Source: Thermodesulfovibrionales bacterium (GTDB taxonomy: Bacteria > Nitrospirota > Thermodesulfovibrionia > Thermodesulfovibrionales > SM23-35). Taken from it: a stretch of DNA of 64,000 nt. Positions within the stretch are counted from its first letter, which is position 1; each line of letters opens with the position of its first letter. This document shows positions 1,847 to 57,274 of the stretch, piece by piece. Both the position numbers and the translations under genes were made by a program. Under the pieces are notes generated by a model. That model worked only from the letters and a program-made list of their open reading frames with translations, was not told where the DNA came from and did no database searches. The stretch covers positions 3,823 through 67,822 of the forward strand of contig JASEEX010000002.1 of NCBI GenBank assembly GCA_030019415.1, in the 5' to 3' direction.

Positions 1847-1885
1847 AGTTCTTTACCCCGTTAGATAATAAATATCTAATGGGGT

Positions 1886-2790: not shown

Positions 2791-4065
2791 TTAATAAGCA
2801 ACCTGCAAAGTTAGCTGCACTCTTTTATCGTCCGATTTACCGGACTGCTTATAATCCACAGTATCATAATCAAGAAGAACCATATTTTTATGCTGTTTGT
2901 CTATATGATAAGCAACACCTGCAATATACCTTCTATTCTCGTCATTTTTTATATCATCATTTGGGTCAAAGAAATCATATCGGCCGATGATGCCAAACTT
3001 CTTATGAGGTTTTAATTCGGCAAAGAAGGAATAACCATCTTTATCATTCTTATCATTACCTTTTTGATTACCCTTGCCCCAATAATATTGGCCTGTTAAG
3101 GTAATATATCCATGCTCAAAGCTCGCAAATCCAAGGTTCACTCTCCAGTCAGGATCGGTGTCCTTATTTCCTTTTCCGGTTATCCCGAAGTAAGAGAACT
3201 GAAGTCCGGGAATAACGCCAGGTAGAGGCCTTAGTGTCAGTCTGCCTTCTAGGACCTTGTTTTCATTCTTTTCATGTGCATGGTATCCACCACCATTATA
3301 AATTCCTAAAGACATACTTCCATAACGACCAGGATAGTAACTGCTTACCTTGTTCTTATAATCTTCGTTCATCTCCCCTCCAAACAAGGAGACAAATGTT
3401 AAACCTATGTCTGCTGAATTAAAGGTTTCATTCCGCTCGAGGAACATGGTGTCCTGACAGCGGTAAAAATTCACATGCTCTTCATAGTCGAGCCACGGCA
3501 TGTGAACGACTCCGACTTCGATGAAAGGTTTTGTGAAGAAGGCAAGATCCGGAAGATTAAACTTTCCATAGAGGTATTTAATCCTTACACTGATAGACCC
3601 ATCCAGACTGCTTCCGGCATCGGATACAGTTGTTATATCTGGAGTTATGCGGGCGCTAAACCAAGGGGTAAACTCTTTATATACGTTTAAGTACCCCCGT
3701 TTCGCAACAAACTTACTGTATCCATCACCACCCGTGGTATTCCCAGTTTCTCCGTCCTGATAAGAGAGATACCACAAGTATCCAAATTTCCAACCTTTAA
3801 GTGCCTTAACTAATTTTCCGATTTCCTTCCCCTCTACAGGAACCGCCTCCTTTACCTTCTCTACAATCTTCTCCTCAATTTTCTTCTCCTTTTCGACTTT
3901 TCCCCTCTCCATTTCCTCCATTACTGATATTGCGTCTTCTTTAGTAAGGACACCCCTTTCTACCAGTTTTTTGAGTATAGGGTTTGTGATTTCCGCAGCT
4001 ATTGCAGTTTCCGTTAACCATAGAAAGCTGCAGAGCCCTAAAACCAAAACTAACAGTTTCATCAT
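2791..4065 (-). CDS. Outer-membrane porin, putatively phosphate-selective (OprO/OprP-like)
   Basis: Signal peptide MMKLLVLVLGLCSFLWLTETAIAAE, a charged coiled N-terminal segment, then alternating beta-strand-like sequence ending in ...LTLQVAY. It sits between phoR and pstS. The family assignment comes from context and general features only. Confidence 0.55.
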   Translation of the reverse strand: MMKLLVLVLGLCSFLWLTETAIAAEITNPILKKLVERGVLTKEDAISVMEEMERGKVEKEKKIEEKIVEKVKEAVPVEGKEIGKLVKALKGWKFGYLWYLSYQDGETGNTTGGDGYSKFVAKRGYLNVYKEFTPWFSARITPDITTVSDAGSSLDGSISVRIKYLYGKFNLPDLAFFTKPFIEVGVVHMPWLDYEEHVNFYRCQDTMFLERNETFNSADIGLTFVSLFGGEMNEDYKNKVSSYYPGRYGSMSLGIYNGGGYHAHEKNENKVLEGRLTLRPLPGVIPGLQFSYFGITGKGNKDTDPDWRVNLGFASFEHGYITLTGQYYWGKGNQKGNDKNDKDGYSFFAELKPHKKFGIIGRYDFFDPNDDIKNDENRRYIAGVAYHIDKQHKNMVLLDYDTVDYKQSGKSDDKRVQLTLQVAY

Positions 4066-4180
4066 AATCTGTCTTCCCTTCGATGAAATTATTAACACAA
4101 CCCCATTAAATGTCTTACGCTGTCACGCATGACTCGCCACTAATTTAATATTTGATTGTTAAAGGAGTATTAAGGCGAGA

Positions 4181-5536
4181 TTAAATTTTGGTTACGGATG
4201 GAATTATGATTTTTACCTTGGTCTCCCCGCCCTGAGTGCTTTCGATCTCCATCTCCCAGCCGTGTGCCTTTACGAGATGTTTGACAATTGCAAGGCCGAG
4301 GCCTGTACCACCAAGCTCTCTTGAACGTGCTCTATCGACCCTGTAAAATCTCTCACCAAGGCGGGAGAGGTGTTTCCTGGGGATACCGATTCCCGTGTCC
4401 TCTACTGATATAACGAAGACGTTTTTCTCTTCTTCACTTTTAATTTTTAACTTTTCTCTTTTCACTTTTACTGTTACTCCTCCTTCTTCTGTAAACTTAA
4501 TTCCATTATCCACAAGATTGAGGAGTATCTGAATCAAGCGATCCCTGTCTGCTTTGGTCTCTTGTGCGTTGGGAGATATCTCTTTTTTCAAGTAAAGCCC
4601 CTTGTTTTTTGCCTTCCCTCTTAGGGTTGCAAATACCGTATCAACAACATTGTCAAGATTCACATCCATTTTTTGTATTTTTATATCACCAAGCTCTATT
4701 CTTGAGAGCGTAAGTAAATCACTTACAAGGGAATTCATGCGCTCACTGTGGGTTCTTATCGTCTCAAGGAACTTGCGTGCATTTTCTTTATCATCAATCG
4801 CTCCTTCGAGAAGTGTTTCAGCAAAACCTTTTATTGCGGTAATAGGTGTCTTTATTTCATGAGAGACATTTGCTACAAAATCCTTTCTCATATCCTCAAG
4901 TTGTTTTAGCCCTGTAATATCATAAAATGTTAAAACTACCCCTGATACTTCCCCTTTTACTGAAAAAGGTGCTGCAGTGGCCACCAGATAAAGTTCTCTC
5001 GGGTGGGTAACTTCGATCTCTAAGGATATCGTCTCTTCGGTTTTAACCACCCTATCAATTACCTCCATAAGTTCTGCCTTCCTCAGGGTCTCCATCAGTG
5101 TCCTGCCTTCGATATTGGATTCGACACCGAAAAAGTTCTTGATAGCTGAATTACTTAAGAGTATCCTGCCTTTGGTATCTGTCAACATTAATCCGTCAGA
5201 CATGTTCATGAGGATAGCCTCTATCTTATATTTCTCCTCCTCACCCTCTTTGAGCCTCGTCTCGAAATTCTGAGCCAGATCATTGATATTCTTTGCAAGT
5301 TCTCCAATTGCGCCTTTTCCCTTCAAGAAAAGACTTTTTCTGAAATCTCCTGATGTTATCGAACCTGAGAATTCTGCTATCTCACTTATAGCCTTTTCTA
5401 CCCGCTTGATCTCAAGAAGGCTAATAACGATGGTAGCTAAAAGTGCAGACAGTAAATAATATTCGATACCTGCCAGCAAAAAAGGAGAAAATATCAGATA
5501 GGCTAAAAGAATACTTTTTAATAATCCAGCCTTCAC
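4181..5536 (-). CDS. phoR: Phosphate-regulon sensor histidine kinase (PhoR-like; HAMP-PAS-HisKA-HATPase)
   Basis: H-box FVANVSHEIKTPITAI, N box LLNLVDNGIKFT, G boxes DTGIGIP and GGTGLGLAIVK. Two N-terminal TM segments. The start overlaps the phoB stop. Confidence 0.8.
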   Translation of the reverse strand: MKAGLLKSILLAYLIFSPFLLAGIEYYLLSALLATIVISLLEIKRVEKAISEIAEFSGSITSGDFRKSLFLKGKGAIGELAKNINDLAQNFETRLKEGEEEKYKIEAILMNMSDGLMLTDTKGRILLSNSAIKNFFGVESNIEGRTLMETLRKAELMEVIDRVVKTEETISLEIEVTHPRELYLVATAAPFSVKGEVSGVVLTFYDITGLKQLEDMRKDFVANVSHEIKTPITAIKGFAETLLEGAIDDKENARKFLETIRTHSERMNSLVSDLLTLSRIELGDIKIQKMDVNLDNVVDTVFATLRGKAKNKGLYLKKEISPNAQETKADRDRLIQILLNLVDNGIKFTEEGGVTVKVKREKLKIKSEEEKNVFVISVEDTGIGIPRKHLSRLGERFYRVDRARSRELGGTGLGLAIVKHLVKAHGWEMEIESTQGGETKVKIIIPSVTKI

Positions 5537-11307: not shown

Positions 11308-11321
11308 TCCTTTTCTATTTC

Positions 11322-11554: not shown

Positions 11555-11557
11555 AAA

Positions 11558-11821: not shown

Positions 11822-11834
11822 AAATGCCTCCTTC

Positions 11835-19339: not shown

Positions 19340-20434
19340 ATGCCAAAGGTTCTTGTTGGAATGAGCGGGGGAGTTGATTCCTCTGTCGCAGCATATCTTC
19401 TGAAGGAGAAGGGATATGAGGTGGAAGGTCTCAGCCTTATTCTATGGGAAGAAAGAGGCAGAACTGATTTCAAAACCTGCTGCTCCCTTCAGGCGATTGA
19501 GGAGGCATCAAGAACTGCTCGACATATCGGAGTACCCCATAACATGATGGATGTGCGAGATGATTTTATAGAAAAGGTGATTGAGCCTTTTGTTAGTGCC
19601 TATACCGCAGGCTCAACTCCCAACCCTTGCATATTATGCAATAGATTCATCAAGTTCCCTTTTCTCATTAGGGATGCTGAAAAAAGAGGTGCTGAATATG
19701 TAGCTACCGGACACTATGCAAGAATAGAAAGACAGGATTCAAGGATTCAAGGATTCAAGGGTTCAAGGGAGACTTCAGTATTTTTGAAAAAAGGAATTGA
19801 TCCCAAAAAAGACCAATCCTATGTTCTTTATATCCTGAAACAGGAGGAGCTTAAAAAACTAATCCTTCCCCTCGGTTATTACAGGAAAGATGAAGTCAGG
19901 GAAATTGCAAAAGGACTTAACCTTCCGGCAACAAAGAGGTCTGAGAGCCAGGAGGTATGCTTTATTGAAAACAGAAATTATTTTAAGTTCATTGAAAAAC
20001 TTTCTCCCCTTGCAGGAAAACCAGGTCCTATCATTGGTATGACCGGAAAGGTAATAGGTACACACAAGGGGATTCATGCATATACTGTTGGCCAGAGAAA
20101 AAGGCTGGGTATATCATCTAAAGAACCCTTTTATGTTGTAAAGATTGATACTATTAGAAACACAGTATATGTAGGTACTCAGGAGGCTGCAAAGAAAAGG
20201 GAATTTTTTGTTGAAGACCTGAACTGGATTTTGCTTCCTCCATCTGAAAAATTTAAAGCCTCTGTAAAGGTACGCTCCATGATGAAGGATGAGCCAGCAA
20301 CAATATCTTTACTCGGAGATAAAGTAAGTGTTGTCTATGATAAACCTCAGTGGGCCCCTGCACCTGGCCAGAGTGCCGTTTTCTACGATGGAGACACAGT
20401 AATCGGTGGGGGAGTAATCAAAACAACAGCCTGA
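19340..20434 (+). CDS. mnmA: tRNA 2-thiouridine(34) synthase MnmA
   Basis: PP-loop VGMSGGVDSSVAAYLL, plus NPCILCN, ATGHYAR and KDQSYVLY. It contains an in-frame octamer array. Confidence 0.9.
   Translation: MPKVLVGMSGGVDSSVAAYLLKEKGYEVEGLSLILWEERGRTDFKTCCSLQAIEEASRTARHIGVPHNMMDVRDDFIEKVIEPFVSAYTAGSTPNPCILCNRFIKFPFLIRDAEKRGAEYVATGHYARIERQDSRIQGFKGSRETSVFLKKGIDPKKDQSYVLYILKQEELKKLILPLGYYRKDEVREIAKGLNLPATKRSESQEVCFIENRNYFKFIEKLSPLAGKPGPIIGMTGKVIGTHKGIHAYTVGQRKRLGISSKEPFYVVKIDTIRNTVYVGTQEAAKKREFFVEDLNWILLPPSEKFKASVKVRSMMKDEPATISLLGDKVSVVYDKPQWAPAPGQSAVFYDGDTVIGGGVIKTTA
19735..19766. repeat. Tandem 8-nt array GGATTCAA x4 inside mnmA
   Basis: ggattcaa ggattcaa ggattcaa gggttcaa. It encodes part of RQDSRIQGFKGSRE, between the conserved GHYAR and KDQSY blocks. 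Confidence 0.9.
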
Positions 20435-21311: not shown

Positions 21312-22113
21312 CTAACGAAACCATACCTTTGCATAGAGAGACTTTTTCTATTATTGCAGGCAACCTTTCAAGGTACTCTATGATGCCTTCGGCATCTATC
21401 CCTTCCTTCACAAAAAATGCCCTTCCTCCGCTTCTACTCCCCTCACTCTTGATGTTGGGTATCCTCAAATATCCGAAGGCCTTAGATGCCACATAGCCTG
21501 TTGTGTAGTAGGGATCATCAGATACACATAATTCAGCTATCACATGCCCACAGGATGAGACCTTTGACGCAAGGACCAGCGCCTCTTTAACAGTCCCAGT
21601 ATTAATACCATGCCTTGAGAGCCTCGATGAAAGCCCCTTCAATGCCGGCTTAGTAATCCCGAGCCGGGATACCCTTATTCCCCTTTCTCTGTCTGGATCG
21701 AGACGATTGCCCTTTTCGGCTGTAATAATGGCCGCACCTCTCATACCGTCTTTTTTGATCAATTCAAAGGCCCTGTCAATAGCCACCTTCGATACCCCTG
21801 ATGATTGAAGTAACCCCCTCGCCATTTTTTTTCCTTCACCCGGCATGGTATTTTTGATTGTGGCTACAGGTAAAGCCGTGATTGTTTTTGGCTCCTGTTT
21901 TATATCCTCGATTGTAATTATGATTTTATCGGCTTTGCCTCTCGGATGGTTTAATGCCCTCTCAATATATTTTTTAACAACCTCCTGAATTTCTGACTTC
22001 TCATAAATACCTTCCGCACCAGAGATATGAATCTCCTTCTGACTGGCGACTGGCGACTGAGGACTGACGGCTGTTTTAGATGCCCTCATCCTTATGCTCC
22101 ATAGATCCTTCAT
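21283..22113 (-). CDS. bioW: 6-carboxyhexanoate-CoA ligase (pimeloyl-CoA synthetase) BioW
   Basis: Collinear with the remembered Bacillus BioW sequence: SIRMRAS, HISGAE, RGIRVSR, KEALVLASKV, AELCVSDDPYYTTGYVA, GGRAFFV. I place the start at MKDLW (22113), which avoids overlap with mqnC. Confidence 0.75.
   Translation of the reverse strand: MKDLWSIRMRASKTAVSPQSPVASQKEIHISGAEGIYEKSEIQEVVKKYIERALNHPRGKADKIIITIEDIKQEPKTITALPVATIKNTMPGEGKKMARGLLQSSGVSKVAIDRAFELIKKDGMRGAAIITAEKGNRLDPDRERGIRVSRLGITKPALKGLSSRLSRHGINTGTVKEALVLASKVSSCGHVIAELCVSDDPYYTTGYVASKAFGYLRIPNIKSEGSRSGGRAFFVKEGIDAEGIIEYLERLPAIIEKVSLCKGMVSLDEILNRSHI
22041..22075. repeat. Tandem 7-nt array (GACTGGC-type, 5 units) inside bioW
   Basis: gactggc gactggc gactgag gactgac ggctgtt. 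On the gene strand it encodes TAVSPQSPVASQ near the N-terminus. Confidence 0.85.
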
Positions 22114-22144: not shown

Positions 22145-23281
22145 TCAGAAATATTGAATGATTTTATAGTACGTATTCCTCTGTGCCGGTTTAAATTCGG
22201 CATCCCTTATCGCCTTGATGATATCTTCCTTTGAGACCCTGTAACTTACACCCGTTGATGCTATAACATTTTCTTCTATCATTGTGGAACCAAAGTCATT
22301 TGCTCCAAACCTCAGGGCAACCTGTGCAAGCTTAAGCCCCTGTGTAACCCATGATGCCTGGATATTTTTGATATTGTCGAGATAAATCCTTGAGATTGCA
22401 AGCACCCTCAGATACTCAACAGCAGTAGCAGCAAAGAGTTCTGAGTTCTGAGTTCTGAGTTCTGAGTTTTTACTCTGAGCTCTGAGCTCTAAGCTCTTTG
22501 CTAATTCTGTATTACCCGGCTGGAAACTCCAGGGAATAAAGGCTGTAAAACCTCCAGCTTTATCCTGAAGGCCCCTGATAGCATCCAGATGCTTTATGAT
22601 ATCCTCTGCCTTTTCGATGCTCCCGAACATCATTGTTGCCGTCGTCTTCATGCCAAGTTTGTGTGCCTCTTCCATTACCTTAAGCCATCTATCAGATTTA
22701 ATCTTCTTCGGACTTATCACCTCCTTTACCCTATCAGAGAGAATTTCTGCACCTCCGCCCGGAATAGAGTCAAGCCCTGCATCCCTGAGGAGCCCCAATG
22801 TCTCTCTTATTGTAAGGTTCGCCCTGTCTGCCATATAGCAGATCTCAGGAGGGGAGAAACCATGGATATTCATATCAAATCTGCTCTTTATCTCCCTCAG
22901 CAGGTTTATAAAATAGCTAAGGTCGAGCCCGGGATTTAGTCCTCCCTGAATGAGTATCTGTGTGCCTCCTAATTTTATTGTCTCTTCAATCTTTTTGAGG
23001 AGTTCATTTTTCTCCAAGAGATATGCCTCAGGGTCGTCTTCGTCTCTCCAGAAGGCACAGAAGCGGCATCTGTTTATGCAGATATTTGTATAGTTAATAT
23101 TCCTGTCTATTATAAAAGTGACAATTCCTTCAGGATGTAGTCTTTTTCTCGTTTCATCAGCCATCCGGCCGAGTTCAAGCAGATCAGCCTTTTCAAGGAG
23201 CATCAAGCCTTCTTTCTTCGTAAGACGGTCAGTGTTTTTCTTTATTGGTTTGTTTCTCACTTTTAACTCATAACTTTTCAC
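22145..23281 (-). CDS. mqnC: Radical-SAM cyclic dehypoxanthinyl futalosine synthase (MqnC-like)
   Basis: Motifs DRNINYTNICINRCRFCAFWR and GGTQILIQGGLNP in a CofH/MqnC/MqnE-type fold. The MqnC versus MqnE assignment rests on resemblance to remembered Streptomyces sequences. GTG start at 23281. Confidence 0.6.
   Translation of the reverse strand: MKSYELKVRNKPIKKNTDRLTKKEGLMLLEKADLLELGRMADETRKRLHPEGIVTFIIDRNINYTNICINRCRFCAFWRDEDDPEAYLLEKNELLKKIEETIKLGGTQILIQGGLNPGLDLSYFINLLREIKSRFDMNIHGFSPPEICYMADRANLTIRETLGLLRDAGLDSIPGGGAEILSDRVKEVISPKKIKSDRWLKVMEEAHKLGMKTTATMMFGSIEKAEDIIKHLDAIRGLQDKAGGFTAFIPWSFQPGNTELAKSLELRAQSKNSELRTQNSELFAATAVEYLRVLAISRIYLDNIKNIQASWVTQGLKLAQVALRFGANDFGSTMIEENVIASTGVSYRVSKEDIIKAIRDAEFKPAQRNTYYKIIQYF
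22436..22497. repeat. Tandem 7-nt arrays (GAGTTCT x5, then GAGCTCT x3) inside mqnC
   Basis: gagttct x4, gagtttt, tactct, gagctct x2, aagctct. It encodes LELRAQSKNSELRTQNSEL in-frame. Confidence 0.9.
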
Positions 23282-23291: not shown

Positions 23292-24368
23292 TCTATAGAA
23301 CGAATCCCTTTCAGTAGGAACCTTCCCTGCCATCCTTATCAGATATATGAACTGCTCCGGTGTCATTGACTCGGCTGAAAGGGCACCTGCAGAATGGGTA
23401 ATCCTCTCTTCAATAACTGTGCCGCTGAGGTCATCTGCTCCAAAAATAAGTGAAAGCTGAGAGATCTTTTCTCCGAGCATAATCCAATAAGCGGTGATAT
23501 GATCGAAGTTATCGAGTACTACCCTACTTACGGAAATGGTCTTCAGGTCATCTATGCCCGATGAGTAAGAGCCCCCTATTTCGTTGCCCTTTGGATGATA
23601 GGAAAGAGGGATGAATGCCTGGAAGCCACCTGTCCTGTCCTGAAGATCCCTTAGTTTAAGTAAATGGTCAACACGGTGTTTATAGTTTTCAATATGTCCG
23701 TAAAGCATCGTTGCATTCGTCTTAATCCCTAACCTGTGTGCTGTCTCCATAACCTCAAGCCACCTCTCCCCGGAAATCTTCTCGGGACATAGTCTACTCC
23801 TTATCTTATCGTCAAATATCTCAGCACCCCCTCCTGGTATTAATTCGAGGCCGTGTCTTTTGAGGGCAAGTAGTGTCTCTCCCAGACTGAGGCAACTTAT
23901 CCTCGACATATAATCTATCTCGACAGCGGTAAATGCCTTTATATGAAGCTCGGGAAAATTCTTCTTTATCATTGAAAGCATATTCAGGTAGTATTCAAAT
24001 GGCCAGTCAGGATGAAGCCCTCCGACTATATGAACCTCCCGATAAGGTGTGAGGCGTGAGACGTCAGACGTGTAACGTGAAGGCTGAAGTTTTTTAATGA
24101 TTTCATCGATTGTTAATTCAAATGCCCCTTCTTCTCCCTTTGAACGGCTGAAGGCACAGAATCTGCACCGGTTAATACAGATGTTTGTTGGATTGATATG
24201 TCTGTTCCTGATAAAGAATACATTTTTGCCATTTTTCTTCTCAGCCACATGTGAGGCGAGGTCTCCAAGGAAAAAGATGTCCTCTATCTCGAATAATTCG
24301 AGTGCCTCATCCTTAGATACCCTCTCGCCAGCCAATACCTTTTCCTTAATTCTTCTGAGCATAAACAA
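23268..24368 (-). CDS. mqnE: Radical-SAM aminodeoxyfutalosine synthase (MqnE-like)
   Basis: Motifs IKEKVLAGERVS, NRHINPTNICINRCRFCAFSR, VHIVGGLHP, FTAVEI, and MLYGHIENYKHRVDHLLKLRDLQDRTGGFQAFIPL. These match my recollection of MqnE. Confidence 0.6.
   Translation of the reverse strand: MFMLRRIKEKVLAGERVSKDEALELFEIEDIFFLGDLASHVAEKKNGKNVFFIRNRHINPTNICINRCRFCAFSRSKGEEGAFELTIDEIIKKLQPSRYTSDVSRLTPYREVHIVGGLHPDWPFEYYLNMLSMIKKNFPELHIKAFTAVEIDYMSRISCLSLGETLLALKRHGLELIPGGGAEIFDDKIRSRLCPEKISGERWLEVMETAHRLGIKTNATMLYGHIENYKHRVDHLLKLRDLQDRTGGFQAFIPLSYHPKGNEIGGSYSSGIDDLKTISVSRVVLDNFDHITAYWIMLGEKISQLSLIFGADDLSGTVIEERITHSAGALSAESMTPEQFIYLIRMAGKVPTERDSFYRQVKSEKL
24049..24083. repeat. Tandem 7-nt array (GTGAGRC-type, 5 units) inside mqnE
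   Basis: gtgaggc gtgagac gtcagac gtgtaac gtgaagg. It encodes PSRYTSDVSRLTP in-frame, just before the conserved VHIVGGLHP block. Confidence 0.85.
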
Positions 24369-28463: not shown

Positions 28464-29234
28464 ATGGAAAGATTGTTAAAGATAATAGGTTCGTGGGCAC
28501 TCTCGCAATTGCGAACAATCGGGCATATGTTTGTCTTTTTGTTGAATTCTCTCTATTTTATATTCGTTCCACCCTTTAAATTCAGATTGCTCTTACGGCA
28601 GATGAGGTTTTTTGGCAACAAATCCCTTTTAGTTATCTTACTAACAGGCTCTTTTACAGGTATGGTCCTCGCCCTTCAGTTATTCTATATCCTCAGGAAG
28701 TTCGGCTCGGAGGCATTGCTTGGTCCCGGTATTGCCCTGAGCCTCACTAGAGAATTGGGGCCAGTACTTTCTGCCTTGATGGTCACAGGCAGGGCTGGCT
28801 CCGCCCTTACCGCAGAGATAGGGATGATGAGGATTTCAGAGCAGATAGATGCCCTTACAGCTATGGCACTTAATCCGATACGGTATCTTATTGTGCCCAA
28901 CATCGTTGCCGCCATAATAGTCTTCCCTTTGCTTGTAGCCATATTTGATGTAATTGGTATATACGGTGGATATATGGTGGGAGTAAAAATCCTTGGAATC
29001 AGTTCAGGAACATACTTCTCTCTTATGGAAGATTATGTGGATATGGAGGATATAATGGTAGGACTTTATAAATCCCTCAGTTTTGGATTGATAGTCTCTT
29101 GGGTATGCTGCTACAAGGGCTTTTATACAGGATACGGTGCAGAAGGTGTCAGCAAATCCACAACAGAGGCCGTTGTTATGTCCTCCATATTTATTCTCAT
29201 ATGGGATTATTTCCTCGGCTCTGTTCTCCTATGA
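28464..29234 (+). CDS. mlaE: MlaE-family ABC permease
   Basis: 256-aa polytopic protein with TRELGPVLSALMVTGRAGSALTAEIGMMRISEQIDAL, the MlaE signature. Confidence 0.8.
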   Translation: MERLLKIIGSWALSQLRTIGHMFVFLLNSLYFIFVPPFKFRLLLRQMRFFGNKSLLVILLTGSFTGMVLALQLFYILRKFGSEALLGPGIALSLTRELGPVLSALMVTGRAGSALTAEIGMMRISEQIDALTAMALNPIRYLIVPNIVAAIIVFPLLVAIFDVIGIYGGYMVGVKILGISSGTYFSLMEDYVDMEDIMVGLYKSLSFGLIVSWVCCYKGFYTGYGAEGVSKSTTEAVVMSSIFILIWDYFLGSVLL

Positions 29235-30460: not shown

Positions 30461-31900
30461 ATGAACAAACAGGATTCAGGATACAGGATTCAGGATTCAG
30501 GATTAAGGGAGGGGCTGTTTATTATCTTGTTTACTGTTTACTGTCTACTGTTTACTGTCTATTTATCTTCCACACCTGCATATGGTCAGGACAACACCCA
30601 GAAAAAAGATAATCAGAAAATTGTATTAAATCTCGAGCAGTGCATAAAAAAGGCAATTGAGATAAGTCCAGAGATAGGAGAGTCCCGGTATGAGGAAGAG
30701 GTATACAAGTCAAAGAAGCTACAGGCAGATTCAGCGGTCTATCCACAGATAGAAGTCCTTGCCTTGACAGGCCCTTCTCCGAGGGCAAGGGGGGATCAGT
30801 TAGACTCTCCAGATGACTCTACAAGGCCCACCATTAACGGAATCTTTGGTATTGCTGAAGTAACTTTAACTCAGCCTATATATACCTTCGGCAAGATAAG
30901 CAGTTATAAAGAGGCTGCTTTAAGTGGTATAAAAGTAGCAAAGGCAGGTGTAGAGAAAAAGACCTCAGATATTATTTTGAGAACAAAAGAACTCTACTGG
31001 AGCCTCCTCCTTACCAGGGATATTAAAAATCTTGTCCTGGAGATAAAGGACGAATTTGTTACATCCATAGAAAAGGCAGAAAGGCAGCTCGAGGCAGGTT
31101 CTCCATGGGCAGATGAACTGAATCTTTTCAAATTGAGGGCATTCTTAGGCGAGGTTGAGAGGAATCTCAATGAGGCTGAAAAGAGCGAGGCCCTTGCGAA
31201 GAACGCCCTCATGACCAGCCTCGGACTTCCGAAAGGAACAGAGTTTGATATTGCAGAGGCATCTTTATCCCCTGAAGATAAGATGCCTGAAGATATAAAA
31301 AATTACTTAAAAAATGCAACGGAACTGAGACCTGAATTCATCCAGCTCAAGGAGGGCCTGAATGCCAAAAAAGCCCTTCTTGATGCAGAAAAAAGCAATT
31401 TCTATCCTCAGCTTTTTATTGGTTTATCGGGATCTATAGCAGATGCATCAAACAGGAACCGGGTGGAAAACCCCTTTATTTATGACTATTTCAGCCATGT
31501 CTATGGCGCTGCATATCTGGGACTTAAATGGTCTGTTGATTTTGGGATAACACAGGGAAAGGTTAAGGAGGCAGAGGCCGAGTATTATAAATTATTAGAG
31601 AAAAAGAGATTTGCTGATGAGGCAATCCCTCTGCAGGTGAGAAAGGCATATCTTGAATTAGAAGAGGCAAGGAAGAGTATTCCAGAAATGGAGAAGGCTT
31701 ACAAAAATGCAAGAAAATGGCTCGTTGCAGCAATTGCAAACTTCGACCTTGGCATTGGTGAGGCAAAGGAAATAGCTGATGCTGTAACGGCCTATGCCCA
31801 GATGAAGGTAAATTATCTCCGCACTGTGTACAACCATAGAATGTCCTTTGCAAATTTATCTTATGCAACAGGTATAGATATTAAAGAAGTAAAGTCGTAG
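30461..31900 (+). CDS. TolC-family outer-membrane protein
   Basis: 479 aa with a signal peptide and duplicated OEP-type coiled/beta repeats. It is embedded in the mla operon. AGGAGGG lies before the ATG. Confidence 0.75.
   Translation: MNKQDSGYRIQDSGLREGLFIILFTVYCLLFTVYLSSTPAYGQDNTQKKDNQKIVLNLEQCIKKAIEISPEIGESRYEEEVYKSKKLQADSAVYPQIEVLALTGPSPRARGDQLDSPDDSTRPTINGIFGIAEVTLTQPIYTFGKISSYKEAALSGIKVAKAGVEKKTSDIILRTKELYWSLLLTRDIKNLVLEIKDEFVTSIEKAERQLEAGSPWADELNLFKLRAFLGEVERNLNEAEKSEALAKNALMTSLGLPKGTEFDIAEASLSPEDKMPEDIKNYLKNATELRPEFIQLKEGLNAKKALLDAEKSNFYPQLFIGLSGSIADASNRNRVENPFIYDYFSHVYGAAYLGLKWSVDFGITQGKVKEAEAEYYKLLEKKRFADEAIPLQVRKAYLELEEARKSIPEMEKAYKNARKWLVAAIANFDLGIGEAKEIADAVTAYAQMKVNYLRTVYNHRMSFANLSYATGIDIKEVKS
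30470..30504. repeat. Tandem 7-nt array CAGGATT x5 (N-region of the TolC-like signal peptide)
   Basis: caggatt caggata caggatt caggatt caggatt. It encodes QDSGYRIQDSGL. Confidence 0.9.
30530..30564. repeat. Tandem 7-nt array TTTACTG x5 (H-region of the TolC-like signal peptide)
   Basis: tttactg tttactg tctactg tttactg tctattt. It encodes FTVYCLLFTVYL. Confidence 0.9.
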
Positions 31901-31908: not shown

Positions 31909-32649
31909 ATGAAAGGAATTCGAGATTCAAGATTCATCCTGTATCATTTGTCATTTTTACTGTTTACCCTGTTAGAAAATGCCCTGCGGCTTGCCACGGG
32001 GTTATTCCTTATTTTACGAACACGGGGTTTAATGCCCCGTGTGAGTTTTCTAACGGGGTTTACTGTTTACTGTTTACTGTTTACTGTTCCTATAGCATAT
32101 GCTGGAGAGCCAACATATCAGGTGAAGCAAACCATTGATGGTGTTCTTGACATTTTAAAGAACAAAGAACTAAAAAAGCCTGAAAAGACAAAAGAAAGGA
32201 GGGCATTGATACGCAAAGTTGTTGGAAATAGATTTGATTTTGAGGAGATGTCAAAAAGGTCCCTCGCCCTTCACTGGCGAGCAAGGTCATCAGAGGAAAA
32301 AAGGGAGTTCGTAGCATTATATAGCGATCTTCTTGAGAGATCCTATATTAAAAAGATTGAAGGCTATGAAGATGAACAGATCTTATATACAGGGGAAACT
32401 ATTGATGGTGACTATGCAGTCGTAAAAACCAAAATAATCACTAAAAGGAATGTTGAGATACCAATAGAATATAGACTAATGAAGAAAAATGCCAAATTTG
32501 AAGTATATGATGTGGTAATAGAGGGTGTGAGTCTTGTGAATAATTATAGAAATCAATTCAACAGGATTATTCGAACCAGCTCATATGCGGAACTCCTCAG
32601 GAGGATGAAGAGTAAACAGGAAGAAGAACTTTTTGTGGAAACCCATTAA
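31909..32649 (+). CDS. mlaC: MlaC / Ttg2D-family periplasmic lipid-binding protein
   Basis: The mature part (from YQVKQTIDGVLDIL to VIEGVSLVNNYRNQFNRII) is typical MlaC. The ATG at 31909 has AGGAGG upstream. The 5' 180 nt is made of a MITE plus heptamers, so the true start and leader are uncertain. Confidence 0.7.
   Translation: MKGIRDSRFILYHLSFLLFTLLENALRLATGLFLILRTRGLMPRVSFLTGFTVYCLLFTVPIAYAGEPTYQVKQTIDGVLDILKNKELKKPEKTKERRALIRKVVGNRFDFEEMSKRSLALHWRARSSEEKREFVALYSDLLERSYIKKIEGYEDEQILYTGETIDGDYAVVKTKIITKRNVEIPIEYRLMKKNAKFEVYDVVIEGVSLVNNYRNQFNRIIRTSSYAELLRRMKSKQEEELFVETH
31962..32063. mobile_element. MITE-like element, family A (TTAGAAA-type termini), inside the mlaC 5' region
   Basis: The termini gtttaccctgttagaaaa and ttttctaacggggtttac are inverted repeats. 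An internal hairpin reads acacggggtttaatgccccgtgt. TTTACTG units flank the element (1 on the left, 4 on the right). Confidence 0.75.
32059..32086. repeat. Tandem 7-nt array TTTACTG x4 (H-region of the MlaC signal peptide)
   Basis: tttactg x4 encodes FTVYCLLFTV, followed by PIAYA-GEP. A fifth unit lies at 31956-31962 on the other side of the MITE. Confidence 0.9.
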
Positions 32650-32703: not shown

Positions 32704-32801
32704 GGGAGTGTATGGGGTTCTGGTGTCCCCCCTGGACTTCAAATCCAGTGTTTCCTGCCAAAATCGGGAAGGGTGGGTTCGATTCCCACACACTCCCGCC
32801 A
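32704..32801 (+). tRNA. selC: tRNA-Sec (anticodon UCA)
   Basis: 8-bp acceptor stem gggagtgt/acactccc, anticodon stem ctgga/tccag with loop cTTCAaa (anticodon TCA). It has a long variable arm, T arm gtggg-ttcgatt-cccac, discriminator g and an encoded CCA. Total 98 nt. Confidence 0.9.
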
Positions 32802-34196: not shown

Positions 34197-35609
34197 TTAA
34201 CTATCTGATAAGGCTGAGCTTATTCCCTTCACAAGGCCCTCTAAATCTACATCCCTTACGGTTCTTACATCAATTATCAGGAAGCCCTCTTTTATCCTTG
34301 CAATAATCGGTGGGTTGCCTTTTCTCAATCTTTCCTCAAACTCATTAACAGAGATTTTATCGGATTTTATTGAGACTATACATGTTGGAAGATCTACCTC
34401 TGGCAGCGCCCCTCCACCAGCCCTTGATGAATCCGCCATGACCTCAATATGGGCATCTTTTATTTCTTTCTTTAATTTTTTAGCTATCCTATTTGCTCGC
34501 CTTCTTATCTCTTCAGGTTTCTGCAGTAGCATCCTGAGTGTCGGGATATTCTTAATCGCCTTCTCTTCTTCGATGTATTCCATTAGTGTTGCTTCAAATC
34601 CGGCAAGGGTAAGCTTATCTATCCTCAAAGCCCTTGTTAGGGGATTTTTCTGAATCTTTTCTATATATTCTCTTTTCCCCACAATTACACCGCCCTGAGG
34701 GCCACCTAAAAGCTTGTCACCGCTGAAGGTAGTTATATCAACTCCAGTTCTCACGATGTCCTCAACTACAGGTTCGCCAAAGATGCCGAAAGGCTTTAAA
34801 TCTACGAGGCATCCGCTCCCGAGGTCGAACATCACGGGGATCTGATACCTCCTGCCGAGACTTGCAAGGTCTTCTATCGAGACTTCCTCGGCGAACCCCA
34901 TAACCCTGAAATTGGATTTGTGGACCTTTAAGATGAGGGCTGTATCTTCATTTATCGCCCTTTCATAGTCGTAAAGATGGGTTTTGTTTGTCGTCCCGAC
35001 CTCACGGAGTATTGCGCCACTTGCTGCCATTACCTCAGGCATCCTGAAGGAACCTCCTATCTCAACGAGTTCACCCCTTGAAACAATCACCTCTTTTCCT
35101 TTTGCCAATGTATTAAGACAGAGCAGGACTGCTGCAGCATTGTTGTTGACAACAAGTGCCTCCTCTGCACCCGTAACCTCTCTAAGGATTCTTCTGACAT
35201 GAATATACCTCTTACCCCTTTTCCCTCCTTTAAGGTCATATTCCAGATTGGAATAACTCCCAGAGACCCGCTTGATGTTTTCGAGAGCCCTTTCAGAAAG
35301 GATAGAACGACCGAGGTTTGTGTGTATTACTACGCCTGTAGCGTTTATGAGGGGATTGAGACTATAAGAGGAGAGCCTTTCGATGATATTTTCTATCTCA
35401 GCCATCATATATTCTTCAGAGAGGCCCGCAGTGAGATCCTCCATGATCTCCTTTCGCCTTAAATCAATCACCTCCCTGATCGCCTGAAGCACATATCTTC
35501 TCGGATAGGTCTTCAGCCACTGCATTCCTTGATTACTCCTCAGGATTTCATCCACAGATGGTAGGCCCGAGAGTAGTTTCTGCTTTTCCTCCATGTCCTT
35601 TTCTAACAT
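34197..35609 (-). CDS. selA: L-seryl-tRNA(Sec) selenium transferase
   Basis: Motifs LPSVDEIL, INATGVVIHTNLGRS, NNNAAAVLL and FSGDKLLGGPQGGVIVG (PLP lysine region). 470 aa. Confidence 0.9.
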   Translation of the reverse strand: MLEKDMEEKQKLLSGLPSVDEILRSNQGMQWLKTYPRRYVLQAIREVIDLRRKEIMEDLTAGLSEEYMMAEIENIIERLSSYSLNPLINATGVVIHTNLGRSILSERALENIKRVSGSYSNLEYDLKGGKRGKRYIHVRRILREVTGAEEALVVNNNAAAVLLCLNTLAKGKEVIVSRGELVEIGGSFRMPEVMAASGAILREVGTTNKTHLYDYERAINEDTALILKVHKSNFRVMGFAEEVSIEDLASLGRRYQIPVMFDLGSGCLVDLKPFGIFGEPVVEDIVRTGVDITTFSGDKLLGGPQGGVIVGKREYIEKIQKNPLTRALRIDKLTLAGFEATLMEYIEEEKAIKNIPTLRMLLQKPEEIRRRANRIAKKLKKEIKDAHIEVMADSSRAGGGALPEVDLPTCIVSIKSDKISVNEFEERLRKGNPPIIARIKEGFLIIDVRTVRDVDLEGLVKGISSALSDS

Positions 35610-40701: not shown

Positions 40702-41687
40702 GAACCCTTTCCCTCGGCTATTCCCCATGCCCCAATGATACTTTCATATTCTATGCCCTCGTCCGCGGGAAGATCGATACAGAGAATATGGGTTTTAAAG
40801 AGGCCCTGCTAGATGTTGAGACCCTTAATCAGATGGCTTTGCGCTCCGAACTCGATATTACAAAGATTTCATATCATGCCTTCGGCCATCTCCGTGAAGA
40901 CTACTGCCTCCTCCGCTCTGGCAGCGCAATAGGCAGAGGCTGTGGGCCTCTGGTAGTTGCAAAGGAGGACTACACCTTGAAGGACTTAAGGGGGAAAAGG
41001 ATAGCAATCCCTGGCAGGCTTACAACGGCAAACCTGCTTTTACAGCTATTTTCTTCAATCTTCAACCTTCAACCTTCAAATCCCCCTCTACCCCCCTTTA
41101 CCCCGTTAGAAAGCCCTGCCATTTGTGGCGGGGATGATATAGGTAAAATCTCAATTCCTTATAGAAAAGACGGGGCTTTAACCCCGCCTTTTCTAACGGG
41201 GTTTACTAAAGGGGGGCGGGGGGGGATTATTGAAATGCCTTTTAATAAGATCATGGATGCAGTTGTGAAGGGAGATGTGGATGCAGGACTGATAATCCAT
41301 GAAGGAAGATTTACCTATCCTTCTTACGGCTTGAAGAAAGTTTTAGACCTCGGCGAGTGGTGGGAAAATGATACAGGGTTACCTGTACCCCTCGGCGGTG
41401 TACTTGCTAAGAGGAATCTGGGAAAAGACCTGATAAAGAGGGCCGATTCAGTTATAAGAAAGAGTATTGAGTATGCATTAAAACATAGGGATGAGCCAAA
41501 GTTCTATATAAAACAGCACTCCCAGGAACTCGAAGAGGAAGTTATAGAGCAGCATATAACTCTCTATGTGAATGATTATTCTTTAGATATTGGTGAGGAA
41601 GGGTTATCAGCCGTTAGAGAGCTCCTCAGAAAGGCGGAAATGAAAGGGATTATCAAGGGATCGAGAAACTCTCTATGCGTTACGTAA
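40698..41687 (+). CDS. mqnD: 1,4-dihydroxy-6-naphthoate synthase (MqnD), carrying a ~59-codon repeat-derived insertion
   Basis: [57 protein letters not shown] and [13 protein letters not shown] are collinear with the remembered Thermus MqnD. There is an ATGA overlap with the upstream gene. Confidence 0.7.
41053..41080. repeat. Tandem 7-nt array CTTCAAC x4 inside mqnD
   Basis: cttcaat cttcaac cttcaac cttcaaa encodes [10 protein letters not shown]. It directly precedes the intragenic MITE. Confidence 0.9.
41081..41225. mobile_element. MITE-like element, family A, in-frame inside mqnD
   Basis: The core inverted termini are tttaccccgttagaaa (41097-) and tttctaacggggtttac (-41206). They are extended by complementary C-rich and G-rich tracts (ccccctctacccccc / ggggggcggggggg). 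The element has no stop codon in the mqnD frame. Confidence 0.75.
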
Positions 41688-44130: not shown

Positions 44131-44314
44131 AAAATCTTTTATCCCTTTTGACTATGGAGCCTAGCATAAGACTGCAGTACCTTTACCCCTTCTAACGTAA
44201 GTCTATTTAAATTACTTGAGGGCTGTCAAGTACGTCTCTCGTGCCGTTTCTCTTGAGGTTAGAGAGGAGATATGTTGTATATTAAAAAACTCACTACTTA
44301 GGGGAGGCTTATTG

Positions 44315-45019
44315 ATGAGGATTTTGGCTGCATTCATTTCTACCTTTTTATCCCTTGTGCTTCCAGCCAAGGCACTATCAGATATAATCGTCCACGACAT
44401 TGTTGTTCCCATAGGCAAGGAGGTTATGCTCAGGGCTGAAGTAAAGGGAAGATTCTTCAGCAAAGGTGGCGAGATAGTAGAGTTCTTTGTCAACGGGAAA
44501 TCTATTGGAAAGAGTCTTTCAGGCATGGGTGGTTTTGCCTTCAGACAGTTTATTCCGCCCAAAACCGGCATATATCAAATAAAAGCGAGGGCAGGCAAGG
44601 ACGAAGGTAAGGGATTACTCCTCTCCCTTAGGAGGGGCTCGAGGATTGTCTTTGTTGATGTAGAAGGTAGCCTGTTCGAGAGGTTTTCGAATAAGCCGAG
44701 GCACGGGAGCCAGAAAGTGATGAAAGATCTCCACAGAAGATTTCCAGTTGTCCTTCTCCAAACAGGGCTCCTGAACATAAAGTCCATAAAGGCATGGTTA
44801 AAGAAGAATGGATTCCCTGAGCTACCTGTAGTTACCTGGAGAAATGGTGTAGTGTTTAGTGAGTTTAATGAAAAGGGATTTAAAATCAAGGCAGTAATAG
44901 GAAGCCAAGATGTGATCGATTCTGCAAAGGAATACAAACCTCTTGCCCTTAGCTTCGAAGAGACAGAGGATGCAGTAGAAGTAAGGGATTGGGAGGAGAT
45001 TAGGAAAAAGCTGAAGTGA
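44315..45019 (+). CDS. Hypothetical secreted protein
   Basis: An internal ATG preceded by GGGGAGG gives the signal peptide MRILAAFISTFLSLVLPAKA. The rest is unrecognised. Confidence 0.45.
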   Translation: MRILAAFISTFLSLVLPAKALSDIIVHDIVVPIGKEVMLRAEVKGRFFSKGGEIVEFFVNGKSIGKSLSGMGGFAFRQFIPPKTGIYQIKARAGKDEGKGLLLSLRRGSRIVFVDVEGSLFERFSNKPRHGSQKVMKDLHRRFPVVLLQTGLLNIKSIKAWLKKNGFPELPVVTWRNGVVFSEFNEKGFKIKAVIGSQDVIDSAKEYKPLALSFEETEDAVEVRDWEEIRKKLK

Positions 45020-45996: not shown

Positions 45997-46031
45997 TTAA
46001 CTATCAACTGTTAACTTTTAACTTTTCACTG
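45997..46031. repeat. Intergenic tandem 7-nt array (TTAACTT-type, 5 units) just upstream of tRNA-Arg
   Basis: ttaacta tcaactg ttaactt ttaactt ttcactg. Confidence 0.8.
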
Positions 46032-46038
46032 TCGTAAC

Positions 46039-46167: not shown

Positions 46168-46962
46168 ATGAAGATCCAGGTTCTCAGAAACATTGGCAGA
46201 AGGCTTCTTAAGGAAATTCCAACCATGAGGCTTAGACCGTATACTCAAATAGCTATTGGTGTTGGTGCAGCAGGCGATAAGACCTTCCTTATAGATAAAA
46301 GGGCAGAAGAGATTATTATCTCTGGTCTTGATGAGTCAGGGGAAGCCTTAACACTTATCTCTGAAGAGATTGGTATAAAGGACATAAAAGGCGGAGGTAA
46401 GAAGATTCTTATAGACCCCATTGATGGTAGCAAGAATGCAATCTCGGGAATCCCTTTTTACTGTACATCCGTTGCAGTTGTAAATGGAAATACCCTGGGG
46501 GATATCGAACTCGCATATGTTGTGAACCTCATAAATGGTGATGAGTTCTGGGCAGAGAAGGGCAAGGGCGCATTCTTAAATAGTAAGAGGATATATACAC
46601 AAAGGGACGACGAATTTTATCTTATCGCATACGAGGCGCAGTCCCCTCACAAAGACATTCCACGGATAATTCCACTTCTTTCAAAATCAAGAAAAACCCG
46701 ATGTCTCGGTGCTACCGCACTTGACCTTGCATACCTTGCCTTTGGTGCAATCAGCATCTTTGTTACCCCATCCCTTTCGAGGGGCTTTGACTTCGCAAGT
46801 GGCTATCTGCTTGTAAGGGAGGCCGGAGGGATATTTACGGATATTAAAGGTAATACCATCGAGACCTTCGAAGTCAGCCTTAAAAAAGGTTCCTCACTTC
46901 TCGCATCAGGAAATAAAAGACTCCACGAAAAGGCATTGAGACTCCTGGGTAAACCCCGTTAG
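46168..46962 (+). CDS. suhB: Inositol monophosphatase / fructose-1,6-bisphosphatase family protein
   Basis: Motifs ISEE, LIDPIDGSKN, and ATALDLAYLAFG in an IMPase fold. The stop codon lies inside the adjacent MITE terminus. Confidence 0.75.
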   Translation: MKIQVLRNIGRRLLKEIPTMRLRPYTQIAIGVGAAGDKTFLIDKRAEEIIISGLDESGEALTLISEEIGIKDIKGGGKKILIDPIDGSKNAISGIPFYCTSVAVVNGNTLGDIELAYVVNLINGDEFWAEKGKGAFLNSKRIYTQRDDEFYLIAYEAQSPHKDIPRIIPLLSKSRKTRCLGATALDLAYLAFGAISIFVTPSLSRGFDFASGYLLVREAGGIFTDIKGNTIETFEVSLKKGSSLLASGNKRLHEKALRLLGKPR

Positions 46963-56555: not shown

Positions 56556-56726
56556 CCCGCACCACCTCTTTTCATGACTCTATCTGTAATGTCCATGCCT
56601 TTATCCCGCACCTTTCCCGAATACCCCGCAGCAAGCTGTGGGGTGAAGGGTTCTCAAATAAATCCTTTCGGCGGGGTCGAATACCCCACTGAAAGGTGCG
56701 GGATTTATTCGTGGTGCGGGGTTCAC
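56551..56726. mobile_element. MITE-like element, family B (176 nt), filling the skp-lpxD intergenic space
   Basis: Termini ttcaccccgcaccac and gtggtgcggggttcac. The internal module ccccgcagcaagctgtgggg is shared with family A copies. Confidence 0.8.
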
Positions 56727-57274
56727 TTCTTCTTTTTTGCCGGTGTTGCCTTTAACTCGTTATATTTTTTTATGATTGTATCAGTAATGTCTATGTCCTT
56801 TTTGGAGTAAAGGACTATGCTCCCGGCCTTCTCTACTATGAGGATGTATCCTTCTTCTTCTCCGATCCTCTCTACTATTTCCCGAATCTCTTTTATGATC
56901 GCATCCGTTAGTTCCAGTTCTTTCTTCTTGACCTCGGCCTGTGAATCCTGGACAAGCCTCTGGTATTCCCTGAGCATTTTTTCGAGTTCTTCCTCTTTGC
57001 TCTTTTTTGCCTCTGCGGAGAGTACGGAGACCTGTTTTTCCAGATCGCTTTTTAGCTTTTCTATGGCCTTGCCCTTCTCATCTATAATTGACTGTTTCGA
57101 TTTTATTAAGGACTCAAGGTCAGACTTAGCCTTCTTTCCAGCATCGGATTCATTTAGAACTTTGTGGAAATCTACACACCCTACCTTTATTGAATCAACC
57201 CCAAAGGAAAAAGTGGCAAGTGACAAGTGAAAAGTGAAAAGTGATAAAATACAAATGATAAGCTTTGTTTTCAT
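56723..57274 (-). CDS. skp: Periplasmic chaperone Skp (OmpH)
   Basis: A signal peptide followed by a long charged coiled-coil region and a Lys-rich tail. It lies between bamA and lpxD, as in many diderms. Confidence 0.75.
   Translation of the reverse strand: MKTKLIICILSLFTFHLSLATFSFGVDSIKVGCVDFHKVLNESDAGKKAKSDLESLIKSKQSIIDEKGKAIEKLKSDLEKQVSVLSAEAKKSKEEELEKMLREYQRLVQDSQAEVKKKELELTDAIIKEIREIVERIGEEEGYILIVEKAGSIVLYSKKDIDITDTIIKKYNELKATPAKKKK
57211..57245. repeat. Tandem 7-nt array (sense-strand TCACTTT-type, 5 units) encoding the Skp signal-peptide core
   Basis: Plus strand: aagtggc aagtgac aagtgaa aagtgaa aagtgat. It encodes LSLFTFHLSLAT. Confidence 0.9.

Follow-up and report, generated by a model that had tools for sequence, protein, structure and literature searches.

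The CTCTT repeat in the leader of the Neisseria opa genes is said to have been described by Stern et al. in 1986. This pentamer is a coding repeat that lies in the leader-peptide region and acts as a switch (PMC3960869), and CT repeats are found in the signal-peptide coding region of oipA and other outer-membrane genes of Helicobacter pylori, where ON/OFF alleles follow copy number (PMC6327388). Heptamers are the commonest long simple repeats in many bacteria, and they have been studied in cyanobacteria, Beggiatoaceae, Bacteroidetes, and Xanthomonas, where they are mainly intergenic (PMC4679880, PMC4692102). Among the known ones are the cyanobacterial STRR, TAACTGA of Beggiatoaceae, cyanobacteria, and Bacteroidetes (PMC4679880), and GGGAATC of Xanthomonas and Nostoc (PMC4692102), and heptanucleotide repeats were also surveyed by Mrazek in 2007, according to the papers that cite that work (PMC4679880, PMC4692102). 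In Xanthomonas, 7-11% of the heptamer repeats are intragenic (PMC4692102), and the TAACTGA heptamers inside open reading frames (ORFs) lie at the protein periphery or in surface loops, with the reverse strand of the unit encoding the hydrophobic-leaning peptide LSVISYQ (PMC4679880). Simple repeats in general are depleted at mid-protein positions and enriched at the ends, in part for reasons of structure (Lin and Kussell 2012, PMC3315296). Here, we examine a stretch of 64,000 nucleotides from a Thermodesulfovibrionales bacterium (contig JASEEX010000002.1 of GCA_030019415.1, positions 3,823 to 67,822 of the forward strand), hereafter called the window, in which heptanucleotide arrays occupy the leader-coding regions of the genes for a TolC-family outer-membrane protein, MlaC, and Skp. 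These arrays are one face of a genome-wide repeat expansion and do not constitute a dedicated signal-peptide device.

The TolC-family gene (30461..31900, forward strand; Pfam OEP, E = 1.5e-33, 116.6 bits) lies in an mlaE-mlaF-mlaD-tolC-mlaC cluster, and its ATG is preceded by GGAGGG, 5 nt upstream. It has 396 homologues, the best hits coming from metagenome-assembled genomes labelled Nitrospirota, Thermodesulfovibrionales, or Dissulfurispiraceae, and it is syntenic with L001, a locus from GCA_040753955.1 that is 95.7% identical to the window over 21 kb. The N-terminus of the ORF translates as MNKQDSGYRIQDSGLREGLFIILFTVYCLLFTVYLSSTPAYG↓QDN, where the arrow marks the predicted cleavage, and the leader of 42 codons (30461..30586) comprises the polar start MNKQDSGYRIQDSGLREG, the hydrophobic core LFIILFTVYCLLFTVYL, and the cleavage region SSTPAYG↓QDN. 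Tandem Repeats Finder called a CAGGATT array of 5.6 copies at 30470..30508 (period 7, score 64, 90% matches), which begins 9 nt past the ATG and encodes QDSGYRIQDSGL, the polar start, and a TGTTTAC/TGTCTAC array of 4.4 copies at 30528..30561, which encodes FTVYCLLFTVY, the hydrophobic core; both are on the forward strand. Read out over 30461-30600, the sequence runs ATG AAC AAA, then CAGGATT CAGGATA CAGGATT CAGGATT CAGGATT, a 19-nt spacer, and TGTTTAC TGTTTAC TGTCTAC TGTTTAC TGTCTAT. Basic residues K3, R9, and R16 precede the core, and the polar segment, at 18 residues, is unusually long. The CAGGATT array is kept in L001 with three substitutions, and the leaders of the two loci are equal in length. 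A preliminary description of this DNA held that the entire TolC leader is repeat-encoded; the arrays do lie within it, but they account for 73 of its 126 bases (58%), with LREGLFIIL and SSTPAYG falling outside them.

The mlaC gene (31909..32649, forward strand; Pfam MlaC, E = 2.6e-47, 161.1 bits) follows, with a conserved ATG at 31909 that comes after GGAGG and the start MKGIRDSRF in common with L001. Its leader translates as ...GFTVYCLLFTVPIAYA↓GEP, with the motif AYA↓GEP, and its hydrophobic core, GFTVYCLLFTV, is encoded by a GTTTACT array of 4.4 copies (32058..32088, forward strand; 100% matches). A polar ATTCGAG/ATTCAAG array of 2.7 copies, the third array of this leader, lies at 31918..31936 (forward strand), 9 nt past the ATG, and is present in L001 too. 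The ORF is open from the ATG at 31909, giving a leader of 65 residues, and an alternative ATG at 32033, supplied by a mobile element described below, would give a canonical leader of 24 residues, MPRVSFLTGFTVYCLLFTVPIAYA↓GEP, with R3 (numbered from M42) as the basic residue before the core. The gene for the Skp/OmpH chaperone (56723..57274, reverse strand; Pfam OmpH, E = 3e-30, 105.7 bits) has AAGGAGG 5 nt upstream of its ATG and a leader that translates as MKTKLIICILSLFTFHLSLATFSFG↓VD, with basic residues K2 and K4. Here a CACTTTT/CACTTGT array of 4.9 copies (57211..57244, reverse strand; called as AAGTGAC on the opposite strand) encodes SLFTFHLSLATF, the hydrophobic core, and comparison with orthologues places the array where a conventional core stands, without lengthening it. 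The cleavage motif is SFG↓VD, as against SLLA↓VD or SFA↓AD in orthologues; a CACTTTT-type array also occurs in L163, in the leader of a Skp orthologue with 75% identity, and the protein itself is 100% identical to one in another assembly named 'Thermodesulfovibrionales bacterium'. Copy numbers of the two TolC arrays, the MlaC core array, and the Skp array range from 4.4 to 5.6, with matches of 90-91% in the TolC arrays and a perfect core array in MlaC, and these calls agree with the translations in placing heptamer arrays in all three leaders, as first noticed in the preliminary description.

Whether such DNA is translated was judged from the orthologues and from a simple signal-peptide test (charged start, hydrophobic core, and small-x-small cleavage motif), together with alignment of the cleavage site among orthologues. 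By that test, the array-encoded cores were rated as hydrophobic as the array-free cores of the window: the best core windows of 10-12 residues have mean Kyte-Doolittle values of 2.88 in TolC, 2.87 in Skp, and 2.22 in MlaC, and the array-free comparison cores have 3.81 in BamA and 2.94 in the ORF at 2791..4098. Forty orthologous TolC loci were compared for start codon, frame, and leader, and eight independent lineages among them bear arrays (window/L001, L004, L005, L006, L007, L008, L009, and L083), with orthologues sharing 64-72% identity in the mature protein. In all eight, the frame set by a Shine-Dalgarno-preceded ATG right after the mlaD stop runs through both arrays into the mature protein, for which the chance with unconstrained length is approximately (1/3)^8 = 1.5e-4, and the cleavage motif AYG/AYA↓QD is retained. 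In the alignment, more than 60 orthologues, array-bearing or array-less, have AYG/AYA/SYS↓QD at the AYG↓QD site of the window. Array-less orthologues have ordinary leaders of 20-25 residues that end at the same site, for example, MKKNDIITACFVCLFFITLLIPVYG↓QD and MVRCLLLIAFCLLIISPAHG↓QD, and in them a Shine-Dalgarno-preceded ATG likewise adjoins the mlaD stop codon. Because the start stays in frame and the cleavage site is kept in eight lineages, we conclude that the TolC arrays are in all likelihood part of the precursor, with the polar array lengthening the polar start and the T-rich array forming most of the core. The leaders are probably functional and cleaved at AYG↓Q. The alternative that the polar array is untranslated, and that the true start lies between the arrays so that the hydrophobic array alone is coding, could draw on the strong Shine-Dalgarno-like GGGAGGGG at 30507-30514, 12 nt upstream of an in-frame TTG at 30527, and on an in-frame GTG at codon 19 of L001. 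Such a leader would, however, have no basic residue ahead of its hydrophobic core, no Shine-Dalgarno sequence with a start codon is found between the arrays in the lineages other than window/L001, and the upstream ATG has the Shine-Dalgarno context of the array-less orthologues and is in frame in eight of eight lineages, all of which makes a downstream start extremely unlikely.

As the unit is not a multiple of three, one array is read in all three phases, as the preliminary description rightly pointed out: TTTACTG gives FTVYCLL, and CAGGATT gives QDSGFRI. An array is therefore closed or open in every frame. Of all possible heptamers, 69% are stop-free on a given strand, and 4.7% encode a peptide compatible with a hydrophobic core; the reverse strand of every unit checked carries one or more stop codons, so the orientation of the arrays is forced. 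In TolC, MlaC, Skp, and the LptD of a relative, the polar array begins 7-15 nt past the start codon (26 nt in one lineage), a position that might also suggest a role of the nucleic acid near the start, such as S1-, cold-shock-, or CsrA-type binding sites or an unstructured initiation region, with the peptide as a by-product. TAACTGA repeats have been proposed to act in such a way, and most of their arrays in Beggiatoaceae are likewise only a few nucleotides away from a start codon (PMC4679880). Such a role is nevertheless very unlikely, given that one-third of the arrays are deep inside genes and that the units vary widely by site and genome, which argues against a sequence-specific binder. 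The TolC 5′ region also lacks unusual structure: its minimum free energy of folding is -35.4 kcal/mol, and shuffled sequences average -36.8 (z = +0.39), on which ground RNA structure in this region was rejected as a candidate, and an Rfam scan of the whole window matched nothing other than tRNA-Sec and one tRNA. Pairing of a polar array with the hydrophobic array of its leader into a hairpin was considered as well and was rejected on inspection, since only four of seven positions are complementary.

The abundance of the arrays exceeds what chance would give. The window holds six strong period-7 arrays and none or one at each of the other periods among 4-12, and the mean expected for period 7 from 100 second-order Markov simulations is 0.01; therefore, the observation stands. 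When the window and its seven closest lineages are taken together, 36 period-7 arrays are found in 185 kb (1.9 per 10 kb), compared with 10 arrays in approximately 1.77 Mb (0.06 per 10 kb) in the remaining approximately 150 loci, which include Thermodesulfovibrio proper, Geobacter, and Desulfobacterota. Repeats of periods other than 7 are near zero in all loci surveyed. Period-7 arrays are thus shown to be a clade-specific, genome-wide trait of related Thermodesulfovibrionales. A phmmer search with the 45-residue leader against 1.84 billion representative proteins returned eight matches, all of them spurious ORFs of long CAGGATT/TTTACTG arrays and hence uninformative on sites in real proteins. 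One contig of an independent short-read assembly of the same strain, L003, breaks inside the GTTTACT array, its end corresponding to window position 32087; assemblies are broken up by heptamer arrays, which metagenome-assembled genomes may under-represent.

The 36 arrays are distributed unevenly: 20 lie in the leaders of TolC, MlaC, Skp, or LptD, 11 in internal loops of cytoplasmic proteins, one at the N-terminus of the cytoplasmic BioW, one at a protein C-terminus, and three between genes. Thus, 33 of 36 are within genes, the coding share of the DNA being 90%. Of the 13 period-7 arrays in the window with 2.7 or more copies, 5 belong to the three leaders, which make up approximately 1% of its DNA, and of approximately seven proteins with predicted cleavable leaders, three bear arrays. 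Leaders are thereby shown to be over-represented among array sites, in support of the preliminary description. Its further idea, that arrays are even exploited as a leader device, is not borne out, since arrays of this kind also stand in frame in the loops and N-termini of cytoplasmic enzymes, and others lie between genes. The proteins concerned were identified from Pfam. On the reverse strand, they include a histidine kinase with a degenerate heptamer array in frame in its HATPase_c domain (4436..4470; peptide VKVKREKLKIKSEEEKN), BioW with an array near its N-terminus (22041..22059; SPQSPVASQ), a CofH/MqnC-like radical-SAM enzyme with three AGAGCTC and five AGAACTC units in frame (22436..22497; KSLELRAQSKNSELRTQNSELF), and a second CofH-like gene with a degenerate CCTCACG-type array (24044..24083; SRYTSDVSRLTPY). 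On the forward strand, MnmA carries the period-8 array AGGATTCA of 4.4 copies in frame (19734..19768; RQDSRIQGFKGSR), and a VitK2_biosynth (MqnA/D-like) gene carries CTTCAAC in 3.9 copies in frame (41052..41079), kept in L001. The MnmA array is the sole non-heptamer one, and it has the AGGATTC core in common with the TolC polar array. An intergenic TTAACTG/AACTTTT array stands just upstream of a tRNA gene (45997..46032), and in relatives, arrays are found at a conserved site of a PyrK-like protein and in FolC-like and CbiA-domain proteins. Peptides from the loop arrays, NSELRTQ and SRITHYA among them, are polar, and those from the core arrays are hydrophobic. The preference for leaders fits the published mid-protein depletion of repeats (PMC3315296) and the peripheral or loop positions of TAACTGA within ORFs (PMC4679880).

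Comparison of closely related genomes indicates that the arrays turn over very fast. The only near-identical assembly pairs, L003/window and L002/L001, are 100% identical, the former, in which L003 is an independent Logan assembly, over 7.6 kb. Between the window and L001, the encoded proteins are approximately 97% identical, yet several array-encoded segments are wholly different. In the first CofH-like enzyme, the KSLELRAQSKNSELRTQNSELF segment of the window (22436-22497) is replaced in L001 (2005-2040) by SRLTPYASRIH, encoded by CCTTACG-type units and 36 nt shorter; in the second, SRYTSDVSRLTPY (24044-24083) gives way to TIDSRLKTI (3555-3595), encoded by AGACTMT units and 15 nt shorter; and in BioW, AVSPQSPVASQ (22041-22059) corresponds to IKSEKSKVKSQNLKFKTKNSKPS (1573-1640), which is 33 nt longer. 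Import of divergent DNA by recombination was ruled out as the cause of array replacement because the 300-nt windows beside the replaced arrays are 97-99.7% identical. A single GAACTCA unit is kept at the edge of the L001 array and is expanded 5-fold in the window, and the CCTCACG unit is found in the second CofH-like gene in the window and in the first in L001, which hints at differential expansion or loss of unit blocks and copying between arrays. Across distant orthologues, the TolC polar units CAGGATT, CAGGATA, CAGAATA, CAAGATT, CAAGAGT, and CAGCAGT are one or two substitutions apart, a gradation consistent with concerted evolution of an old array. In L009, the 5′ ends of the adjacent TolC (6225-6390) and MlaC (7700-7850) genes are approximately 90% identical over approximately 130 nt with one 21-nt indel, and the common stretch takes in the ATG with its Shine-Dalgarno sequence, the polar array, KKK, the spacer, and the beginning of the hydrophobic array, which indicates that a whole leader module was copied within the genome; a similar but weaker likeness is seen in L006. 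As a separate observation, three array-free patches (24629-25228, 28483-28782, and 38375-38671) share only 88-90% identity with L001, where the background is 96-99%, and may be recombination tracts.

These length differences bear on the proposal that changes of plus or minus three units would alter leader length and leave the frame intact and that other changes would switch the gene off. The first half is borne out only in part: there is one clean example, the 21-nt difference between the L009 TolC and MlaC leaders, and coding arrays of the window and L001 differ by 15, 33, 36, and 57 nt, all multiples of 3 and none of 21. The second half would make the arrays contingency loci, in which slippage in the leader by unit numbers that are not multiples of three turns envelope proteins off and on, as CTCTT does in opa and CT in H. 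pylori. The position of a unit that is not a multiple of three in the 5′ coding region of outer-envelope protein genes has such precedents (PMC3960869, PMC6327388), and an N-terminal excess of repeats has been interpreted in this way (PMC3315296). No OFF allele was found, however, in the eight lineages or in the 96%-identical relative, which has a leader of equal length; low-frequency OFF variants would have been missed in this comparison because assemblies give the consensus sequence only. The arrays are, in addition, short and imperfect (4-6 units, approximately 90% matches), similar arrays reside in essential or housekeeping cytoplasmic genes (MnmA, BioW, and PyrK), and TolC, MlaC, Skp, and LptD represent the core envelope biogenesis of a free-living anaerobe, not variable surface antigens. 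Phase variation is, therefore, an improbable explanation of the leader arrays.

The account we favor, which is probable though by no means secure, is a clade-wide expansion of heptamers combined with a selective filter that keeps arrays in leaders, loops, and termini. Slippage-prone heptanucleotide arrays would have proliferated genome-wide in a family-level group of uncultivated Thermodesulfovibrionales, and slippage is the likely generating process. The peptide of an array is set by its unit and strand alone, such that T-rich units yield uniformly hydrophobic 7-residue repeats and A-rich, CAG-type units yield polar or charged ones. Selection would then purge the arrays harmful to the protein and leave survivors where only bulk composition counts, namely, in surface loops, at protein termini, and above all in cleaved Sec signal peptides. 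Since nothing more is required of a cleaved leader than a hydrophobic core behind a polar or basic start, it can be regarded as the most permissive coding segment. In TolC, MlaC, Skp, and the LptD of a relative alike, the polar array would extend the polar start, and the hydrophobic array would make up most of the core. Slippage, the gain or loss of blocks of units, and copying from one array to another in the same genome would alter the arrays, and selection would keep the total leader length at a multiple of three. The enrichment in leaders would accordingly reflect tolerance, probably without selection for the arrays as such.

Several points weigh against this account. The loci were chosen via TolC and MlaC, and the independent leader cases are consequently only Skp and LptD, which, among approximately 16 array sites, are still unexpected at approximately the 1% level by a binomial estimate. 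In the window, there are approximately five loci per kb of leader-coding DNA and approximately 0.7 per kb of intergenic DNA, and a leader density above the intergenic density is not obviously predicted by tolerance alone. Replacement of units at the identity found between the window and L001 is something that slippage and point mutation should not achieve, and point mutation with homogenization cannot explain it because the divergence is only approximately 4%. TolC, MlaC, and LptD all show the layout of polar array, KK, and hydrophobic array, and this recurrence, taken with the copied leader of L009, could reflect selection for the module.

This last point leads to another possibility, that the unit of Shine-Dalgarno sequence, ATG, polar array, KK, and hydrophobic array is an exchangeable cassette that is copied and kept for tuning or renewing export signals. 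The equal layout in the TolC, MlaC, and LptD leaders of several genomes, the TolC/MlaC identity in L009 that includes the ribosome-binding site (RBS), the weaker case of L006, the TTTACTG array common to TolC and MlaC in the window, and the high density in leaders are all in its favor. Clear copying is, however, seen only between adjacent genes of one operon, for which local gene conversion suffices, and array-less orthologues manage with short, ordinary leaders. Leaders without arrays are, moreover, found in BamA, a PstS-like lipoprotein, the candidates at 2791..4098 and 44216..45019, and the OmpA-domain protein of L163. A selected cassette is rather unlikely for these reasons. It is similarly doubtful that an active, lineage-specific process rewrites arrays at fixed sites, within approximately 4% divergence, and copies modules of RBS, polar array, KK, and hydrophobic array between envelope genes; ectopic conversion between arrays or enzyme-driven repeat synthesis would be the candidates for such rewriting. 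The tolerated expansion described above remains the reading we prefer.

The MlaC leader also harbors a small mobile element of 91 nt (31968..32058, forward strand) inside its TTTACTG array, with the terminal inverted repeats CCTGTTAGAAA...TTTCTAACGGGG, which is absent from L001. It is flanked by a TTTAC duplication at 31963-31967 and 32059-32063, and the MlaC frame is kept because the element and one duplicate amount to 96 nt. An element of the same family, 100 nt in length (41102..41201, forward strand; 105 nt with its TTTAC duplicate), is inserted in frame in the MqnA/D-like gene, and the corresponding site in L001 is empty. At least seven copies of the family occur in the window (1856-1885, 31968-32058, 41102-41201, 46954-47074, 52749-52781, 59604-59724, and 63250-63321), the terminal repeat CCCCGTTAGAAA/TTTCTAACGGGG has 15 matches against 0.33 expected, and a 5-bp TTTAC/GTAAA duplication borders seven copies. 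With terminal inverted repeats, target duplication, multiple copies, and empty sites in L001, the family has the features of a miniature inverted-repeat transposable element; no transposase for this TTTAC-targeting element was identified. In the MqnA/D-like gene, the element is surrounded by a C-run/G-run palindrome, CCCCCTCTACCCCCC...AAAGGGGGGCGGGGGGGG (41080-41101 and 41202-41225), which is read as PPLPPF...KGGRGG. This C-rich/G-rich palindrome possibly represents a further small repeat element that is translated; the window contains no other copy, and a similar PPYPPLPKGGRG segment stands at the N-terminus of a Skp homologue.

Immediately downstream of mlaC is a gene for selenocysteine tRNA, and genes for SelA and SelB are close by (32704-32797, 34197-35609, and 41675-43555); these make up an ordinary selenoprotein toolkit that is unrelated to the arrays. 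Four large consecutive ORFs of 473, 782, 1123, and 799 amino acids, without signal peptides, occupy 7541-17606 on the reverse strand and may represent a defense or mobile island.

The leaders described here amount to a natural experiment on the minimal signal peptide, in which a 7-base unit repeated 4-6 times gives a working-looking core and another unit gives the polar start. Non-triplet repeats, which are usually purged, reach a high in-frame density here that extends to housekeeping enzymes, and the clade is thus a good system for following the birth, death, and turnover of repeats under frame constraint. If leader arrays vary within populations, envelope phase variation would be extended from host-adapted pathogens to environmental anaerobes. 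If active rewriting takes place, signal peptides would be continually made and renewed from repeat DNA; new export signals would thereby arise by a natural route, and the process might also serve a free-living bacterium as a cell-envelope contingency system. In practice, the arrays can mislead start-codon calling and break assemblies.

The palindromic elements of Rickettsia are small mobile elements that have entered protein genes and left the reading frame intact. The TTTAC-targeting element resembles them in its in-frame insertions of 96 nt in the MlaC leader and 105 nt in the MqnA/D-like enzyme, and it differs from them in belonging to a different family, in its specific TTTAC duplication, and in that one copy targets a heptamer array. 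As for the arrays themselves, the view that nothing of this kind had been described needs to be narrowed, given the translated leader repeats of Neisseria opa (PMC3960869) and H. pylori oipA (PMC6327388), the documented heptamer repeats (PMC4679880, PMC4692102), and the enrichment of repeats at N-termini (PMC3315296). A search of the literature on heptamer repeats in Nitrospirae/Thermodesulfovibrio found nothing, and no report of heptamer-built signal peptides was found; Nitrospirota are not among the lineages reported in the papers on known heptamer repeats (PMC4679880, PMC4692102), and Lin and Kussell dealt mainly with short-unit repeats and did not single out signal peptides or heptamers (PMC3315296). 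The novel features are the density at which in-frame heptamer arrays occur across the clade, a leader layout of two arrays that orthologues conserve, leader copying between adjacent genes, the very fast turnover of the arrays, and the small TTTAC-targeting mobile element.

With the known heptamer repeats, the arrays share a lineage-restricted excess of period 7, many unit variants, and poor conservation between related genomes, and those systems also contain occasional in-frame copies at protein ends and surface loops. They are set apart from the known, mostly intergenic heptamers by lying within genes in 33 of 36 cases, more than half of them in signal peptides. What is shared with H. pylori oipA is that a simple repeat lies where the signal peptide of an envelope protein is encoded, while the units here are heptamers and no ON/OFF alleles were seen in consensus assemblies. 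With Neisseria opa, the likeness is that a unit that is not a multiple of three is read in several phases in the 5′ part of an outer-membrane gene and encodes the hydrophobic part of a signal peptide. Unlike in opa, however, the unit here has 7 nt, two arrays of opposite character stand in one leader, the consensus assemblies display no ON/OFF variation, the genes belong to the core envelope machinery of an environmental anaerobe, and the same repeats are also found in cytoplasmic enzymes. From this comparison, the present case works like a tolerated in-frame repeat and not like the demonstrated switch of the opa type.

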